Source: Pseudomonadota bacterium
GTDB taxonomy: Bacteria; Desulfobacterota; Binatia; Binatales; Binataceae
Reading direction: 5' to 3'
NCBI GenBank assembly: GCA_021324855.1
Contig: JAJPIG010000028.1
Location: 1,579-65,578, forward strand
Length of the DNA stretch: 64,000 bases
Shown piece after piece: positions 36,402 to 43,291 of the stretch; position 1 is the first letter of the stretch; every line of letters begins with the position of its first letter. The translations under genes and the position numbers were made by a program. Under the pieces are notes generated by a model. The model had not been told where the DNA came from. It made no database searches and was given only the letters and a program-made list of their open reading frames with translations.

Positions 36402-37346
36402 ATGCCTACCGCCCTTGAACACTGCGTTGAAAGGATAATCCTCGCGGAGCCGCGCGGCTTTTGCGCCGGGGTCGATCGCGCCGTTGAGGCGGTGCGCGAG
36501 GCGCTCCGCAGTTTCGGCCGTCCGCTCTATGTTCGCCATCAAATCGTCCATAATCGCTTCGTCCTGGAACGGCTCGAGACTGAGGGCGCGATTTTCGTCG
36601 AAAGCCTCGACGAGGTGCCTGCCGGCCAACGCGTGATTTTCAGCGCCCACGGCGTCGCACCCAGCGAATGGGATCGCGCGAAGGACCGCAACCTGCGGGT
36701 GATTGATGCTACGTGCCCGCTGGTCACGAAGGTCCATCTGGAGGTCCGCCGCTATGCCGACGAAGGGCGCACCGTGATTCTCGTCGGCCACGCCGGCCAT
36801 GAAGAGGTCAAGGGCACGCTCGGCGTCGCGCCCGGTCAAATGCTGCTGGTGGGCAGCGTCGAGGAGGCCGAGCGCGCCGAGGTGCCGGATAGCGAGCGCG
36901 TGGCGGCGGTGACACAGACCACGCTCAGCGTCGATGACACGCGCGAAATCATGGAGACTCTCAAGCGCCGTTTTCCCGCGCTCCGCACGCCCAAGACCGA
37001 TGACATCTGCTACGCCACCCAGAATCGACAGAATGCGGTCAAGGAGCTGGTGAGCGTGAGCGACGCGATCTTGGTGGTCGGCTCAAAGCAGAGCTCGAAT
37101 GCGAATCGCCTGGTCGAGGTGGCGCGCACGCGCGGCGCGCGCGCCTACCTGGTCGACTCGATCGCCGATGTCGAGCCGGCGATGGTCGCCGGCGTGAGCG
37201 CGCTCGGACTGACCGCCAGTGCTTCGTCGCCGGAATGGTTGGTCGAGGAGATCATCGGCGCATTCGCACGCGGCGGCGCCACCGTCGAGCTCCTGAGCGT
37301 AGCCAAGGAACGCGTCCACTTCCCGCTCCCCTCGCCTGCCAACTAG
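36402..37346 (+). CDS. ispH: 4-hydroxy-3-methylbut-2-enyl diphosphate reductase
   Basis: PRGFCAGV, IVHN, SAHGV, DATCPLV, HEEV, TQTT, ICYATQNRQ, SSN. Confidence 0.97.
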   Translation: MPTALEHCVERIILAEPRGFCAGVDRAVEAVREALRSFGRPLYVRHQIVHNRFVLERLETEGAIFVESLDEVPAGQRVIFSAHGVAPSEWDRAKDRNLRVIDATCPLVTKVHLEVRRYADEGRTVILVGHAGHEEVKGTLGVAPGQMLLVGSVEEAERAEVPDSERVAAVTQTTLSVDDTREIMETLKRRFPALRTPKTDDICYATQNRQNAVKELVSVSDAILVVGSKQSSNANRLVEVARTRGARAYLVDSIADVEPAMVAGVSALGLTASASSPEWLVEEIIGAFARGGATVELLSVAKERVHFPLPSPAN

Positions 37347-37382
37347 CCTCCTCGGAAAGCCGGGGCTGAGCCGTCCAAGAGG

Positions 37383-38060
37383 GTGAGTGACGAGACCACG
37401 GCGGGCCCGGCGGCGCGCAGGCGCGGATACATCGCGGTCGAGGGGCCGATCGGCGTCGGCAAGACCTCACTCGCCCGCATGCTCGCTGAAAAACTCGGCG
37501 CGCGCCTGGTCCTCGATGAATCCGGCAACAACCCGTTTGTCGCGCGATTCTATGAAGATCCCGACAAGTACGCGTTTCCCGCCCAGCTCTATTTTATGCT
37601 CATCCGCTACCGCCAGCAGCGCGAGCTGATGCAGCAGGAGTTGTTTCGGCAGGCGACGGTATCCGATTATCTCTTCAGCAAGGATCGGATTTTCGCCAAC
37701 CTGAATCTCACCCCCGACGAGCTGGTTCTTTACGATCAGGTTTTTCGGCTGCTCGATGCGCAGATGGCGAAGCCGGATCTCGTCGTCTACCTCTGGGCGC
37801 GCGCCGAAGTCCTGATCGATCGGCTGCGTAAACGCAACCGCGATTTCGAGCGTCACATCAGCATCGAATACCTGGAGCGGGTCTCCGCCGCCTATCGCGA
37901 CTTCTTTTTCTACTTCGAGGAAACTCCGTTGCTGGTGGTTGATACTTCGGAAATGGATTTCATTGAGCATCCGGAGGATCTCGAGGAGTTGATGCGCGAG
38001 ATCGATCGCACGCGCGCCGGCATCCAGCATTACGTGCCGAGGCTGCGCCCGGGGCGCTGA
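37383..38060 (+). CDS. Deoxynucleoside kinase
   Basis: IAVEGPIGVGKT P-loop, NPF..FY.DP, QLYF, DRIFA, PDLVVYL, R.R.FE lid. Confidence 0.9.
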   Translation: MSDETTAGPAARRRGYIAVEGPIGVGKTSLARMLAEKLGARLVLDESGNNPFVARFYEDPDKYAFPAQLYFMLIRYRQQRELMQQELFRQATVSDYLFSKDRIFANLNLTPDELVLYDQVFRLLDAQMAKPDLVVYLWARAEVLIDRLRKRNRDFERHISIEYLERVSAAYRDFFFYFEETPLLVVDTSEMDFIEHPEDLEELMREIDRTRAGIQHYVPRLRPGR

Positions 38061-38078: not shown

Positions 38079-38987
38079 ATGGCTGCGAGGGAGACATCGG
38101 AAGAGTTCATCGCGCGCCACTGTGCGGCGCTCGCGGACGTGTACGAGCGCGGGATGGCGAGAGCCTATCGCGTCGCGCCCGAGACGATGGCCGCGGCGCT
38201 GTATCGCGGCGCGTGCTCGCTTCCGGAAAACGCGAGCGAAACCGTCGAGCATTATCTCGCGAGCGTCCATGCCGGGGATTTGGCGCTGGCGTGCGCACTG
38301 ATCGCCGGCGATGCGGCGGCTTGGGATGAATTTGTCGCGCGCTATCGTCCGATTCTCTACGCCTCCGCGCGCGCAATCGCAGGCGACGAACTCCGCGCCC
38401 GCGAGCTGGCCGATTCGCTGTGGGCGGAGCTCTACGGAATCCGCGGCCAGACCGGCGCGCGCCGTCCGCTTCTCACCTACTTTCACGGCCGTAGTTCGCT
38501 CGCGACCTGGCTTCACGCCGTGCTCGCCCGGCGTCATATCGATGCGCTCCGCGCCGAACGGCGCCATTCTCCGCTCGAAAGCGTCACTGCCGACCCGGCG
38601 ATTAATTCCGATCCGCCGAATCCCGAACAGCCGCGCTATATCGAATTGATTGGCCGCGCGCTGAACGATGCACTCGACACGCTGAAGCCGCGCGATCGTC
38701 TTCGGCTCGCCTATTATTACAGCGACGGGCTTACCCTCAAGGAGATCGGCGCACTGATGGAGGAGCGCGAATGGACGGTTTCGCGCCGTCTCAAGCGCAC
38801 GCGCGAAGCAATCCGCAGGCGCGTCGAACTGAGGCTGCGCGCGGCGGGCCTCGGGACGGAAGAGATCCGCCAATGCTACGATTATGCGATGGAAGGATGG
38901 TCGTCCGAGCTGAAACCCGCGACCGGCGCAGCGGCGGGAGGCGATGCAACGAAAGACGGCCGGTTCGTTCAAAGTATAAGGAAGTAG
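38079..38987 (+). CDS. ECF-type sigma-70 factor with N-terminal extension
   Basis: DLALACA...GDAAAWDEF, region 2 (YFHGRSSLATWL), region 4 (LKPRDR...YYSDGLTLKEIG...TVSRRL). Confidence 0.85.
   Translation: MAARETSEEFIARHCAALADVYERGMARAYRVAPETMAAALYRGACSLPENASETVEHYLASVHAGDLALACALIAGDAAAWDEFVARYRPILYASARAIAGDELRARELADSLWAELYGIRGQTGARRPLLTYFHGRSSLATWLHAVLARRHIDALRAERRHSPLESVTADPAINSDPPNPEQPRYIELIGRALNDALDTLKPRDRLRLAYYYSDGLTLKEIGALMEEREWTVSRRLKRTREAIRRRVELRLRAAGLGTEEIRQCYDYAMEGWSSELKPATGAAAGGDATKDGRFVQSIRK
38944..38973 (+). promoter_or_regulatory. Putative ECF promoter, copy 1 (before the anti-sigma gene)
   Basis: ATGCAA-N16-CGTTCAAA, ending 17 nt before TTG 38991; same motif and spacing as at 40070. 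Confidence 0.65.
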
Positions 38988-38990
38988 GAT

Positions 38991-40037
38991 TTGGCGCGGA
39001 TTGACGAAAACGGCGATCGCTTCGGCGCGCTTATCGGCGCGCAATTCCGTGCGCGCGATCGTGAGCATCGCGGCGACTGTCCCGAGAGCGAAACCGTCGC
39101 GGCCTACCACGAACGCTCGCTCGCCGGCGACGAGCGCGATGGCGTCGAGCGTCATCTTGCCGGATGCGCTGCGTGCCGCGAGGAGCTTGCAGCGATCGCG
39201 CGCGCATCGCGTGACAGCGCTGCTGTTGGCGCGAAACCCGAATCCGGTATGCGCCGATGGTGGACGAGCGCGCCGGTCGGATTTGCGATCGCGGGCGCGA
39301 TCGCAATCGTGGTCGCAATCGGACTCGGACGCGATTACTACAACCAGGAGTCACGCGAGCAGCGCCAGCAGCTTGCGATGCTGTCGGCCAATCGAACCAC
39401 GATAACGGCCGGGCAAGAATTGCACGCGATGAAGCGCGCCTCAGTGGCAAAGAAGGCCGCCGAATCTAGTAACGTCGCCGTACCCCCATCGCCACCGTCT
39501 CAGCCCGCACAGGCGTCGCTCGCGAGCCGGGCGGTCACGCCGGAGCAAATGCAGGCCACGGGCGCGGCGTCATCCGCAATACCCGGTTCCGGGCCTGCTA
39601 CGGCTCCGGCGATTCCGGGAGCCGCAGTTGGTGCGGCGACAGGCTCAACCCTTGCGCAGAATCAACCTTCGACCTTCGCCCGCTTGTGGCGGCATACGAC
39701 TGTCATCTCGCCCGACGGCTCGGTGCGATGGGAATTCGGGAGCGGGGGAATAATCCAGCGCTTCGGCCCGGGCGGCATGACCGCGATCCGCGTGCCCGGG
39801 GTGACTGCCGACCTGCTGGCCGGCTCCGCACCCTCGTCGGCGGTCTGCTGGATCGTAGGCCAAGGGGGCGTTGTCCTGCGCACGATCGATGGCTTCGACT
39901 GGGAGAAGGTCAATTCGCCGACCTCGAGCGACCTCATCGCTGTGACCGCCAGCGGTCCGGATGCCGCAGTTGCAACCGCGCGCGATTCGCGACGTTATGC
40001 GACGTCTGACGGCGGTCAGACCTGGCAGCCTCAATAG
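38991..40037 (+). CDS. Putative anti-sigma factor: zf-HC2 zinc finger, TM helix, extracytoplasmic Asp-box/YCF48-like domain
   Basis: C..(x)..HLAGCAAC (HxxxCxxC), single TM, low-complexity linker, RTIDG.DW and TSDGGQTW repeats; directly after the sigma gene. Confidence 0.82.
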   Translation: MARIDENGDRFGALIGAQFRARDREHRGDCPESETVAAYHERSLAGDERDGVERHLAGCAACREELAAIARASRDSAAVGAKPESGMRRWWTSAPVGFAIAGAIAIVVAIGLGRDYYNQESREQRQQLAMLSANRTTITAGQELHAMKRASVAKKAAESSNVAVPPSPPSQPAQASLASRAVTPEQMQATGAASSAIPGSGPATAPAIPGAAVGAATGSTLAQNQPSTFARLWRHTTVISPDGSVRWEFGSGGIIQRFGPGGMTAIRVPGVTADLLAGSAPSSAVCWIVGQGGVVLRTIDGFDWEKVNSPTSSDLIAVTASGPDAAVATARDSRRYATSDGGQTWQPQ

Positions 40038-40069
40038 TTTTTCAGCCGCTTCCGCTTTCTCAAAAAAAA

Positions 40070-40099
40070 ATGCAAGAGGCCGCGCCGGCCTCGTTCAAA
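40070..40099 (+). promoter_or_regulatory. Putative ECF promoter, copy 2 (before the RnfD-like/DUF2330 operon)
   Basis: ATGCAA-N16-CGTTCAAA with an A9 tract upstream, ending 19 nt before ATG 40119. Confidence 0.65.
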
Positions 40100-40118
40100 C
40101 AGACGAGGACGGACGACG

Positions 40119-41129
40119 ATGACCTCGAATGCGGCGGGTTTCGCAGGGTGGGCGCGACAACTGGGCGCGATCCGCCTGCCGAACGACCCGCGAATCGCGC
40201 AGATGGCGATGCTCGGGACGATCCTTGCCGCAGGCGCATACCTTTACGATTTTGCGCTCGATCCCCGCCAAACCGTCCTGACCTTCGCCGCCGCGCTCCT
40301 CACCCAGGCGATCACTGATCGGATCAATGGTCGGGAAGCCATCAACTACCGAAGCGCGCTGATAACCGCGCTCAGTATCGCGCTGCTGCTTCGCGCCGAC
40401 TCATTGTGGGTGCATCCCGCCGCCGCCGTGGTCGCGATCGGGTCGAAATCATTGTTGCGCCTTCGCGGCAAGCATCTCTTCAACCCCTCCTGCTGCGGCG
40501 TGATCGTTGCGCTGCTCGCGATGCCCGGGGTGTGGGTGTCGCCGGGCCAATGGGGCAACGGAATCGCGATCGCGGGATGGATCGCGGTCGCCGGCACGAT
40601 GGCCGTCTCGCGGGCCGCGCGCGGCGATCTCAGTTCGGCCTTCATGCTGTTCTACGGCGGCGCGATGCTCGCACGGGTGCTGTGGCTCGGTCAGCGGCTG
40701 GCTGTTTTCGCCCATCGGATGGCAAGCGGATCGCTGCTGCTGTTCGCCTTCTTCATGATTTCCGATCCACGCACCTCGCCCGACGATTGGCGCGGGCGCC
40801 TCGTGCATAGCGCGATCGTTGCGGGCCTCGCCTTCGTTCTGGGCGCACATTTCTATGCCAACAACCCGCTGCTTTGGGCGCTGTTCCTGGCCGCCCCGGC
40901 CGTTCCGCTCTGGGACACGATCTTCAAGGCGCCTCAATTTGAATGGAAAGTCAAAGGAGAAAGCGATGTTTCCGAAATTCAAACGTCTCTCGTTTGCGAT
41001 GATTGCGATAAGTCTCTGCGCCGCATTGCTCCGGCCGACTCCGGCGCGCGCCTTCTGCGGCTTCTACGTCGGCAAGGCGGAGGGCACGCTCCGCAACAAA
41101 ACCTCGAAGGTCGTGTTGGTTCACCATGA
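40119..41129 (+). CDS. Stand-alone RnfD/NqrB-like integral membrane protein
   Basis: SALITALS, IGSK...KHLFNPS, SPGQWG, FFMISDPRTSP; multiple TM helices. Confidence 0.8.
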   Translation: MTSNAAGFAGWARQLGAIRLPNDPRIAQMAMLGTILAAGAYLYDFALDPRQTVLTFAAALLTQAITDRINGREAINYRSALITALSIALLLRADSLWVHPAAAVVAIGSKSLLRLRGKHLFNPSCCGVIVALLAMPGVWVSPGQWGNGIAIAGWIAVAGTMAVSRAARGDLSSAFMLFYGGAMLARVLWLGQRLAVFAHRMASGSLLLFAFFMISDPRTSPDDWRGRLVHSAIVAGLAFVLGAHFYANNPLLWALFLAAPAVPLWDTIFKAPQFEWKVKGESDVSEIQTSLVCDDCDKSLRRIAPADSGARLLRLLRRQGGGHAPQQNLEGRVGSP

Positions 41130-42357
41130 CGACAAGACCGTCATCAGCATCATGAGCGACTATCAGGGCGACCTCTCGCAGTTCGCGATGGTCGTGCCGG
41201 TGCCGACTGTCCTGCAGCGCGGACAGATTCATATCGGCGATCCCGGCGTGGTGAAGCATCTCGATGACTACAGCGCTCCGCGTCTGGTCGAGTATGACGA
41301 TCCCAACCCGTGCCAGATGTTCTATCCGGGCGCGGAGGCGGGGATGAGGATGAGCCGGATGGCCGCTCCGGCTCTAGCAGAGCGCAAGTCGGCCAACGCG
41401 CTCGGAGTCAAGATCGAGGCGCAGTACACCGTCGGCGAGTACGACATCGTGATTCTCTCCGCCCGGCAATCCGACGGCCTCGAGACCTGGCTGAATGAAA
41501 ACGGCTACCGGATTCCATCGGGAGCGTCGGCGGCGCTCGCGCCGTACATCCGCGACGGAATGAAATTCTTTGTCGCCAGGGTGAATCTCAAGGAACAGGC
41601 AAAGACCGGCCTCGATTACCTGCGCCCGATCCAGTTCGCATTCGAATCGCCCAAATTCATGCTGCCGATCCGGCTTGGGATGGTGAACGCCGCCGGACCG
41701 CAGGACCTCGTGATCTATCTGCTGACTGAGAACGGTCGTGTCGAGACGACGAACTATCGAACCATCGAGATGCCGACCGGGATCGACGTGCCGCAATTCG
41801 TGCGCGATGATTTCTCGAAAACCTACTCCGCGATTTTCGATCGCCAGGTGAAGCTCAATGATCTGCGCGGGATCTTCACTGAGTACGTCTGGAATATGAA
41901 CTGGTGCGATCCATGCGCCGCGCCGCCGCTCAGCCATGAGGAACTGAAGCAGCTCGGTGTCTTCTGGCTCGATGAACAAAATCCTCCGCCCGGATGGGGC
42001 GGTGCGCCGCGTCCGATGTATAGACCGCAGATGTTTATCGCGGCGACCGCGGGCGTCGTCCTGACCCGCCTTCACGTCCGATACACCGCTGCGACCTTCC
42101 CCGAAGACCTGTTTTTCCAGGAGACGGGAGATTCCAACAACTTCCAGGTGCGCTACGTGCTGCATCGCCCGTGGGACGGATCGCCGCAGGCCTGCGCCGC
42201 CGCGGCAACGTACTTCCAGGAACTCGATCAACGGCGTGCGACGGAAGCACGCAATTTGGCCGATCTCACCGGCTGGGATATTGCCGACATCGACCGGCGG
42301 ATGGGCCTCAATCCGAGTAAGCCGTCACCAGCGTGGTGGCAGAATCTCTGGCATTGA
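40966..42357 (+). CDS. Exported DUF2330-family protein
   Basis: SD AAGGAG; signal peptide ..PARA/FCGFYV; FAMVVPVP, SAPRLVEY.DPNPC, VGEYDIVILSA, WL.ENGY, LPIRLG, WCDPC, TRLHVRY. Confidence 0.82.
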   Translation: MFPKFKRLSFAMIAISLCAALLRPTPARAFCGFYVGKAEGTLRNKTSKVVLVHHDDKTVISIMSDYQGDLSQFAMVVPVPTVLQRGQIHIGDPGVVKHLDDYSAPRLVEYDDPNPCQMFYPGAEAGMRMSRMAAPALAERKSANALGVKIEAQYTVGEYDIVILSARQSDGLETWLNENGYRIPSGASAALAPYIRDGMKFFVARVNLKEQAKTGLDYLRPIQFAFESPKFMLPIRLGMVNAAGPQDLVIYLLTENGRVETTNYRTIEMPTGIDVPQFVRDDFSKTYSAIFDRQVKLNDLRGIFTEYVWNMNWCDPCAAPPLSHEELKQLGVFWLDEQNPPPGWGGAPRPMYRPQMFIAATAGVVLTRLHVRYTAATFPEDLFFQETGDSNNFQVRYVLHRPWDGSPQACAAAATYFQELDQRRATEARNLADLTGWDIADIDRRMGLNPSKPSPAWWQNLWH

Positions 42358-42388
42358 TGATGGCCGATGCGCTAAACATAGAGCATCG

Positions 42389-43291
42389 GTGTACGCCGTT
42401 AGTGCCAGGCGGCAGCAATGCGAGAGGGGGATTAAGAATTGGTCGCGGCTGATTATTGCCGCGCTGGTGGCGACCGCCTTTGCCGGATGCGCGGCGCAAC
42501 CGAAGCCGGCGCCGCTCGGAAGCGCGTCATGCACAGTTGATCAGCTCGGTCAGAGCGCGATTCCGGTAAGCGTCGCCGGCCGCGATTCGATGATAAGCGT
42601 CGCCCAGGCACTGGCCTCGGCTGCTGCAGGTACCTATCCGGACGCGCAACCGTTCGCCTATAAGATTCGCTTTCATAAGCCGTTGATGCCCTATGCGGAG
42701 GGTGCGCCGCCGTTCGTGATGACCGGACAGTTCGAACGGGCATGCGATCGAAACAATTACCTGGCTCTCGGATGGGGCTACTCGCGGCGCCAGGACGATC
42801 ACGCTTACGCGGCGATCGCGCCCCTCGATCCGCCGCAGGATTGCCCGGGCAAGCAGACTATCGTGCCATCGATCGAGGCGATCTATTCGCCGTCGGTGAC
42901 CGAGCCCGAAACCGACCATAGTCCGATCCGTGGATGGCAGGTCGATCTCCCGCAGATTACGGAAATTCTGCGGAAGAATCATGTCTCGTTCGCCAATGGC
43001 CTCGAAACTATCGAGGTTGCCAGCGCGCGGCGGCTCCGGCTCGATGACGCGCGTCCATCTTCCGGCTGCGTCCGTACCTTCTACGGCCGGGGCGGCCATC
43101 GGCGGCTCGATGCGATCGACGGCTCGCGGACCGTGATGGAGCTGGCCGAAGCCGGACGGCCATCGCGCAGGGCGAGTCTCGCCGGCTACTGCACGGCGGG
43201 TCATTATCTGATCCTCGATGCGATTACGGCCGAGGTGGTTGAGCGCGGCAAATATCGGCGCTGCGAATACTTCGCCTCCGAGCAGATCTAG
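42389..43291 (+). CDS. Hypothetical Cys-rich lipoprotein (start uncertain)
   Basis: LIIAALVATAFAGC lipobox; six further Cys; first in-frame GTG after the upstream gene is at 42389. Confidence 0.65.
   Translation: MYAVSARRQQCERGIKNWSRLIIAALVATAFAGCAAQPKPAPLGSASCTVDQLGQSAIPVSVAGRDSMISVAQALASAAAGTYPDAQPFAYKIRFHKPLMPYAEGAPPFVMTGQFERACDRNNYLALGWGYSRRQDDHAYAAIAPLDPPQDCPGKQTIVPSIEAIYSPSVTEPETDHSPIRGWQVDLPQITEILRKNHVSFANGLETIEVASARRLRLDDARPSSGCVRTFYGRGGHRRLDAIDGSRTVMELAEAGRPSRRASLAGYCTAGHYLILDAITAEVVERGKYRRCEYFASEQI

Follow-up and report, generated by a model that had tools for sequence, protein, structure and literature searches.

Why should a sigma factor, an anti-sigma factor, a solitary relative of RnfD, a respiratory subunit, and an exported protein of family DUF2330 be encoded side by side? 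This question is raised by a locus of a Binataceae bacterium (assembly GCA_021324855.1, contig JAJPIG010000028.1). The window, the whole stretch of DNA that was analysed, comprises 64,000 nucleotides of the forward strand (contig positions 1,579 to 65,578), and the locus lies at positions 38079 to 42357 of it. The initial annotation, made from the letters of the window and its open reading frames (ORFs), had described four co-oriented genes of these types as a self-contained module, in which the last two products form a trans-membrane electron-transfer or modification system induced by the sigma factor. All four ORFs lie on the plus strand at the positions it gave, and the four identities are backed by profile matches.

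The best explanation, with a probability of about 0.6, is that the locus encodes a regulated envelope module in two layers, an extracytoplasmic function (ECF) sigma switch and an inner-membrane complex. Support is reasonably good for the regulation layer and for a membrane complex of two subunits as such. The product layer, a 1:1 inner-membrane complex of the RnfD-like and DUF2330 proteins as described below, is partly supported. For the chemistry, the best guess is a thiol-based function supplied by a small molecule that the RnfD-fold subunit would bind.

A conserved pair of genes

Judged by gene neighbourhoods, the core of the locus is the RnfD-like/DUF2330 gene pair, and the sigma and anti-sigma genes are a lineage-specific addition in Binatia and some Acidobacteriota. 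The same-class sample comprises 121 genomes, 16 of which carry DUF2330, providing 15 loci besides that of the window. The wide sample comes from a scan of species-representative genomes with a 13-sequence alignment (A2), which gave 608 confirmed relatives; the best 80 loci were examined, and they span Acidobacteriota, Nitrospira, Myxococcota, Verrucomicrobiota, Proteobacteria, Bdellovibrionales, Leptospiraceae and Binatia. The RnfD-like gene is directly 5′ of DUF2330 in all 15 other class loci and adjoins it in 73 of the 80 wide loci, upstream in 66 and downstream in seven. Three of the seven wide loci with no adjacent RnfD-like gene have nearly no flank on the relevant side.

The two genes are also found fused. 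Where the RnfD-like ORF is full-length, it runs in frame into DUF2330 in nine of 64 loci. A search for DUF2330 (E ≤ 0.001) yielded 6024 representatives of 50%-identity clusters, and in 10 of 12 long cluster representatives PF03116 stands ahead of a DUF2330 domain that starts near residue 250–330. Together with the complex prediction described below, adjacency and fusion bear out the proposal that the two proteins form a two-part unit.

No third gene is conserved beside the pair. Pfam searches of 150 flanking ORFs from 35 loci, and clustering of the flanking ORFs of all 80, revealed no family in more than seven of the 80 loci, only lineage-specific synteny, and a conserved third member was rejected on these grounds. 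An example of such synteny is seen in four Nitrospira loci (L056, L060, L061 and L062), where a small DUF3015 protein is encoded 3′ of the pair, often followed by a universal stress protein. The self-contained four-gene arrangement holds for Binatia and a few Acidobacteriota, whereas elsewhere the pair stands alone: linkage of the pair recurs, but among class loci only 7 of 15 have the sigma gene nearby, and among wide loci only 3 of 80.

The predicted complex

The proposed interaction between the two proteins is supported by structure prediction. The interaction prediction score from aligned errors (ipSAE) has a median of 0.68 over three runs (0.68, 0.58 and 0.76), while the best of three control pairs gives 0.00. 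Among solved complexes, 116 of 157 attain the ipSAE mark applied, as do two of 215 mismatched pairs; these counts are approximate because the alignments were custom-made. At least 84% of the contacts coincide between runs, and the partner has a predicted local distance difference test score (pLDDT) of at least 70.

On the RnfD-like side, the interface involves the WVSPGQWG loop (residues 136–148), the H199 loop (189–203), R92 and residues 245–248, and on the DUF2330 side, residues 260–268 (ETTNYRT) and 376–391 (FPEDLFFQET). These interface residues are the most conserved ones of both proteins. According to the alignment and the complex model, DUF2330 docks on the loops of its partner where RnfD carries its flavin. 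The RnfD-like and DUF2330 proteins are predicted to bind each other, which the model supports rather than demonstrates.

The promoter-like motif and the sigma factor

A promoter-like motif, TGCAAG-N15-CGTTC (40071..40096, plus strand), is located about 23 nucleotides 5′ of the RnfD-like ATG and is the proposed target of the ECF sigma factor. In the eight sigma-linked loci, the motif lies between the anti-sigma stop and the RnfD-like start, and in all eight its elements are in register: TGCAAG and CGTTC are separated by 15 nucleotides (in one locus by 16), and CGTTC is followed by a ribosome-binding site of the GAGG type and then by the start codon. Of the class loci, 11 of 15 have the motif 5′ of the pair; of the wide loci, 13 of 76 have it there, namely all seven Binatia, four Vicinamibacterales and two other Acidobacteriota. 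Overall, it occurs in 25 of 92 upstream regions, a total that counts two genomes twice, compared with none for its reverse complement and a mean of 0.31 (maximum 2) for shuffled sequences. In the window, only one site falls at the module; a looser pattern has three matches there in total, a number at chance level, reached by 27 of 100 shuffles. The six other strict matches in the genome lack a comparable promoter setting, three being inside a long open frame on their own strand and three being followed by no ORF or only a short one.

The motif tracks the sigma factor. Within the class, where orthologues were accepted at E ≤ 1e-25, a sigma orthologue is found in 11 of 12 motif-positive genomes and in none of four motif-negative ones; outside the class, it is found in all five motif-positive Acidobacteriota genomes and in none of five motif-negative genomes. 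The combined counts are 16 of 17 and 0 of 9. Genomes G225 and G249 retain the motif at the pair even though some 25 kb separate the pair from the sigma gene. Among the 121 class genomes, 11 of the 13 sigma holders also have DUF2330. A conserved ECF-type motif before the RnfD-like gene that follows the sigma orthologue across two phyla gives comparative support to the claim that the pair is induced by this sigma factor. The sigma orthologue of G225 (G225:C1:2490196-2491112; loci L129 and L131) is in two frames with one TGA within the second piece, which may reflect a frameshift, decay to a pseudogene or a fault of the assembly; the motif at the pair is intact despite this split.

The initial annotation had based the regulatory link on a shared promoter motif. 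In this respect it is not confirmed, as no promoter motif common to the sigma and RnfD-like genes was found. The strict motif is absent from three remote sigma loci, in which roughly 1.5 kb to either side of the match was covered, and eight sigma upstream regions scanned with a loose pattern yielded a single poor match (L037). A shared or autoregulatory sigma promoter was rejected because the motif was not found upstream of sigma genes.

The sigma gene (38079..38987, plus strand) encodes 302 residues that belong to an ECF (group 4) sigma factor: TIGR02937 matches with 79.2 bits (cut-off 42.9), and an anti-sigma factor is encoded alongside. Sigma70_r4 matches with 34.9 bits (cut-off 24.1), while Sigma70_r2 is weak at 19.4 bits, under Pfam's 24. 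The N-terminal extension noticed earlier is conserved and amounts to about 75 residues ahead of region 2, and orthologues align from about residue 5. The gene for the anti-sigma factor (38991..40037, plus strand; 348 residues) starts 3 nucleotides past the sigma stop, and the same pairing is seen in orthologous loci. Its description as a membrane-spanning zf-HC2 protein with an Asp-box stands. The zf-HC2 match has 26.8 bits (cut-off 22.2), and the translation contains an H-x3-C-x2-C motif (H-LAG-C-AA-C) on the cytoplasmic side, predicted to bind zinc, followed by a single hydrophobic segment, a low-complexity linker and a periplasmic partial propeller of the Ycf48/BNR type (about residues 232–348). 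These C-terminal 115 or so residues match weakly in Pfam; the ESM Atlas assigns PSII_BNR to residues 230–348 by both features and structure, with template modelling (TM) scores of 0.84–0.91 by query in its structure rows. Its closest neighbours by structure are Acidobacteriota proteins that combine zf-HC2 with PSII_BNR.

Pairs of an ECF sigma factor and a zinc-associated anti-sigma (ZAS) factor are known, for example RsrA-SigR and ChrR-RpoE. The present pair shares with them the near-abutting genes, the HxxxCxxC zinc motif and a two-block promoter with a CGT-type −10 element. It differs in the sigma N-terminal extension, in the periplasmic partial propeller of the anti-sigma factor and in that no motif copy was found before the sigma genes.

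In Vicinamibacterales/Acidobacteriota (L135, L136, L132 and L137), the sigma and anti-sigma genes lie away from the RnfD-like/DUF2330 pair, and a second copy of the motif (TGCAAGAAA...CGTTC) is found 3′ of the anti-sigma gene. About 60–140 nucleotides past this second copy, loci L138–L141 encode a secreted protein of about 485 residues (349 in L139) with a weak match to DUF4139 (27–29 bits, under the cut-off), which is probably a second member of the regulon in Acidobacteriota. Such a protein was not found in the present genome, and homology between it and DUF2330 was rejected (BLASTP E 0.49, hhalign probability 0.1). Between the sigma and anti-sigma genes of five Acidobacteriota loci (L133, L135, L136, L137 and L132) sits a variant of the motif (CGCAAGGAA-N-CGTTC). 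This position suggests sigma-dependent transcription of the anti-sigma gene, that is, negative feedback, in Acidobacteriota; there is no such site in the window, where the two genes are 3 nucleotides apart.

The membrane subunit

The third gene (40119..41129, plus strand) encodes a polytopic membrane protein of 336 residues whose likeness to RnfD and NqrB, recognized earlier, is confirmed by profile and fold. It matches PF03116 with 52 bits (gathering score 27.7), but the best stretch is confined to the last third of the profile, at its C-terminal end; the profile search of the genome added a separate second match for the N-terminal part. The AlphaFold2 model (pLDDT 82.1) is closest to RnfD (8rbq_D, TM 0.60, E 4.2e-7) and then to NqrB (TM 0.53), with urea transporters (TM 0.41–0.43) and AmtB next. 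It has ten helices in an N-in/C-in arrangement, with the interface loops all on one side. This topology fits the natural fusions, which keep the former DUF2330 signal peptide as an additional membrane helix. The core comprises about residues 1–280, and the tail, residues 281–336, is disordered in the model, mostly with pLDDT below 50.

Compared with RnfD and NqrB (PF03116; 8rbq_D, 9eri_D and 7xk3_B), the protein has the same fold and the FNP and FFMxSDPxTSP motifs, but it is shorter and lacks the attachment loop for flavin mononucleotide (FMN). In the position of the FMN loop of RnfD, it has WVSPGQWG, as do all 50 aligned relatives (alignment A3), none of which has a flavinylation site of the (S/T)GAT type. 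WVSPGQWG, DPRxYQI and H199 are specific to this family. The genome, which is 96% complete, has no second PF03116 gene and no match to ApbE (PF02424), for which control genomes did match. The earlier statement that no other rnf or nqr genes are nearby holds for the ORFs and Pfam matches at 34–47 kb of the window, the RnfA/B/C/E/G families not having been searched genome-wide. PF03116 is the sole Pfam match of the protein, with no cytoplasmic domain for electron input, and its relatives have no conserved cysteine. The invariant polar residues in or beside the membrane helices are R92, K110, H119, R168, D216 and N249. By profile score and fold the protein belongs to the PF03116 family, but neither the covalent-FMN loop with ApbE nor co-encoded Rnf/Nqr subunits accompany it. 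Flavin-type Rnf chemistry is unsupported because no flavinylation motif, no ApbE and no second RnfD-family gene were found, and covalent-flavin electron transfer of the Rnf type is unlikely. Homologues carry the label 'enediyne biosynthesis protein E5' at the Joint Genome Institute, which is that source's own naming.

Among described systems, the two-subunit Nqr/Rnf-like complexes come closest. According to Huang et al. (mSystems 2024, PMC11334425), their membrane subunit has the NqrB/RnfD fold without the flavinylated Thr, as here; it is fused to a cytosolic NAD-binding domain (PF00175), and its partner is an extracytosolic NqrC/RnfG-like protein flavinylated by ApbE. The present pair differs from those complexes in having no PF00175 domain, in a partner that matches PF10092 only and is an unrelated beta-sandwich, and in that no ApbE was found.

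The DUF2330 protein

The fourth gene (40966..42357, plus strand) encodes an exported or membrane-anchored protein of 463 residues, which matches PF10092 with 245.3 bits (gathering score 24.7) over profile positions 2–278 of 279. In the AlphaFold2 model (pLDDT 85.8, predicted TM score 0.83), a signal or anchor helix and the N-terminal sequence AFCGF are followed by a beta-sandwich and C-terminal helices. A sequence search of the PDB gave no match. In a structural search against representatives, the top match is baculovirus P35 (Z 10.6, root-mean-square deviation 5.3 Å, 223 residues aligned, identity 7%), 3 units above the next matches, which have Z of 7.6 or less and include 4g2a, ribophorin-type subunits of the oligosaccharyltransferase, N-terminal domains of M1 peptidases and ITIH1; values of 7–8 are common background in this search. 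Foldseek also matches the model to P35 in the PDB (E 1e-3) and, in BFVD, to P49/P35-family and giant-virus proteins (E 5.5e-6 to 3e-3), the P49/P35 relatives being at 2e-4 to 3e-3, although the TM scores to P35/P49 are low (0.22–0.38). A likeness in fold between DUF2330 and P35 is probable on the basis of these model comparisons. The likeness to the caspase inhibitors P35 and P49 (1i4e_A, 1p35) is in the beta-sandwich core, whereas DUF2330 is periplasmic and bacterial, has a membrane partner and carries extra C-terminal helices. Presumably the two also have in common a Cys as the second residue of the mature chain and a long exposed loop. In P35 a cysteine protease cuts a reactive-site loop and is trapped by it; the variable loop of DUF2330 described below may or may not be its equivalent. 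A full-text literature search on the P35 fold and DUF4139 gave nothing relevant.

The description as an exported protein with several cysteines is upheld, and the listed cysteines are conserved among 72 aligned relatives: C31 in 60, C116 in 71, C314 in 52, C317 in 54 and C410 in 66. C31 is the second residue past a predicted A-x-A cleavage site, and the signal peptide is of the Sec type without a twin arginine. In lipoproteins, the Cys is preceded by G, A or S. In the DUF2330 proteins, F or M precedes the N-terminal Cys instead, and a lipoprotein was rejected on this ground. C314 and C317 form the WCDPC motif, located between a strand and a helix of the model, and both are present in 52 relatives. 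The CxxC motif is missing in the other 20, among them 9 of the 10 sequences that have an N-terminal CxC, as against 11 of the 62 others; the CxC group is probably one clade, so that its pattern would stand for a single event. The matches listed by the fold searches include no protein of the thioredoxin fold, and the protein does not qualify as a thioredoxin-type oxidoreductase. After the invariant NPC, a loop of about 30 residues (117–147) is disordered and hypervariable; its conservation is second lowest in the protein, while its length is kept (median 32, range 16–36).

Proposed mechanism and alternatives

In the proposed mechanism, the zinc anti-sigma factor would span the inner membrane, with its Ycf48/BNR-type domain in the periplasm, and hold the ECF sigma factor inactive until an envelope signal arrives. 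The freed sigma factor would use TGCAAG-N15-CGTTC to transcribe the RnfD-like/DUF2330 operon, which looks like its only clear target in this genome. The operon product would be a 1:1 inner-membrane complex of a ten-helix RnfD/NqrB-fold subunit, N-in and C-in with the covalent-FMN loop lost, and periplasmic DUF2330, whose P35-like beta-sandwich would dock on the WVSPGQWG loop and the loop around H199. The membrane subunit may give a bound small molecule to DUF2330 or take one from it, acting on the cysteine cluster (the N-terminal Cys and WCDPC). Candidates for this molecule are a flavin or quinone bound non-covalently and a ligand that is transported. The pair would then be a thiol-based device for envelope repair or modification, and not an ion pump of the Rnf type.

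Several points weigh against this explanation. The whole case is computational, and the chemistry step has almost no support. The named interface residues include no cysteines, and 11 of the 72 DUF2330 relatives have neither CxxC nor the N-terminal CxC. Most lineages that have the pair do without this sigma factor. The counts for motif and sigma factor overstate the case because related genomes are not independent, and the five motif-negative controls outside the class were hand-picked from 63. G260 is motif-positive with no sigma orthologue found at E ≤ 1e-25, and the sigma holders G163 and G192 lack DUF2330, G192 being 65% complete. The motif could also be an operator or a leader element instead of an ECF promoter.

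The most serious alternative, though an unlikely one, is that electrons pass from a flavin or quinone through the RnfD-like protein to the CxxC of DUF2330, in a slimmed-down relative of the two-subunit Nqr/Rnf-like complexes. The fold and the docking of DUF2330 at the FMN site of RnfD favour it, as does the lack of a flavinylated Thr in the membrane domain of the two-subunit NqrB-like systems cited above (PMC11334425). The near mutual exclusion of N-terminal CxC and CxxC points the same way, but this pattern may represent the single event mentioned above. WCDPC, moreover, is presumed to resemble the active site of thioredoxin. The initial annotation had reasoned from the flavin and quinone handling of RnfD/NqrB to electron transfer, and this argument is not supported: the flavinylation loop is missing, the genome search gave no ApbE, the pair has neither an NAD-binding or iron-sulphur domain for cytoplasmic input nor an FMN-bind partner, the membrane subunit is devoid of conserved cysteines, and CxxC is absent in more than a quarter of the relatives (20 of 72). 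Since the signal peptide is of the Sec type without a twin arginine, export of a folded cofactor protein is unlikely as well.

Rather improbable is a channel or transporter, in which the RnfD-like protein would move a small solute and DUF2330 would be its periplasmic cap, gate or substrate-delivery subunit. This would accord with the urea transporters and AmtB as the next folds after RnfD/NqrB, with the six invariant polar residues in or next to the membrane helices, with the absence of a redox signature and with the resemblance of DUF2330 to M1 peptidase N-terminal domains and to the 'putative nutrient binding protein' 4g2a (Z 7.6). That resemblance, however, falls within the background of the fold search, the neighbouring genes give no clue to a substrate, and the conserved cysteines and the hypervariable loop are left unexplained.

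The fold of DUF2330 also gives a slim chance to a protein of another kind, a bacterial counterpart of the P35/P49 fold that is tethered to the membrane in the periplasm as a 'bait-loop' protein. To our knowledge, the P35/P49 fold has so far been seen only in caspase inhibitors of insect viruses. An invading protease or toxin would cleave the hypervariable loop or engage it in some other way, and the nearby cysteines (the second mature residue, the invariant NPC and WCDPC) would trap or report the attack. The RnfD-like partner would anchor DUF2330 or relay the event across the membrane, and the ECF system would raise its level under envelope attack.

Least probable of all is that the sigma and anti-sigma genes adjoin the operon by chance and regulate other genes, the motif being a repressor site, a leader or the like: the sigma gene is indeed near the pair in a minority of loci, many ECF sigma factors autoregulate while no motif was found before these sigma genes, and the same motif precedes a different gene in Acidobacteriota, but its two ECF-like blocks with a fixed 15-nucleotide spacing, a fixed distance to the start codon and a single orientation, its tracking of the sigma orthologue (16 of 17 against 0 of 9 genomes) and the lack of any such promoter setting at the six other genomic matches all speak against it.

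Gene boundaries and surroundings of the locus

The start of the DUF2330 gene is the ATG at 40966 and not the TTG at 40819; it is preceded by a ribosome-binding site, AAAGGAG (40953..40959, plus strand), as read from the sequence, which lies within the RnfD-like ORF. The two ORFs overlap by 164 nucleotides (40966–41129). The out-of-frame tail of the RnfD-like ORF stays open in close relatives, many of which likewise have 336 residues. The tail looks conserved because the conserved N-terminus of DUF2330 is encoded there in another frame. A one-base shift in this overlap would yield the fused form known from other lineages.

A terminator between the anti-sigma and RnfD-like genes was considered and rejected, since the hairpin at 40076–40092 occupies the spacer of the promoter-like motif, lacks a T-run and is not conserved among relatives. 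Immediately 5′ of the sigma gene, positions 36402–38060 encode IspH/LytB and a deoxynucleoside kinase. Since the kinase stop is only 18 nucleotides before the sigma start, the sigma gene may be co-transcribed with these housekeeping genes. On the 3′ side, the ORF at 42236–43291 was rejected as a member of the module, having no Pfam family and no tblastn match in 95 loci. It has a lipoprotein-like signal (…LVATAFAGC…), and on account of this its real start is probably near 42440.

Biological implications

The RnfD-like/DUF2330 pair is very common across bacteria, and a full-text literature search for DUF2330, PF10092 and IPR019283 gave no paper that mentions it. The sigma/anti-sigma switch with its defined promoter would provide an experimental handle on the conditions that induce the complex. 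If the proposed module is correct, the membrane subunit would exemplify the RnfD fold put to use apart from respiration, a protein partner having taken the place of the flavin.

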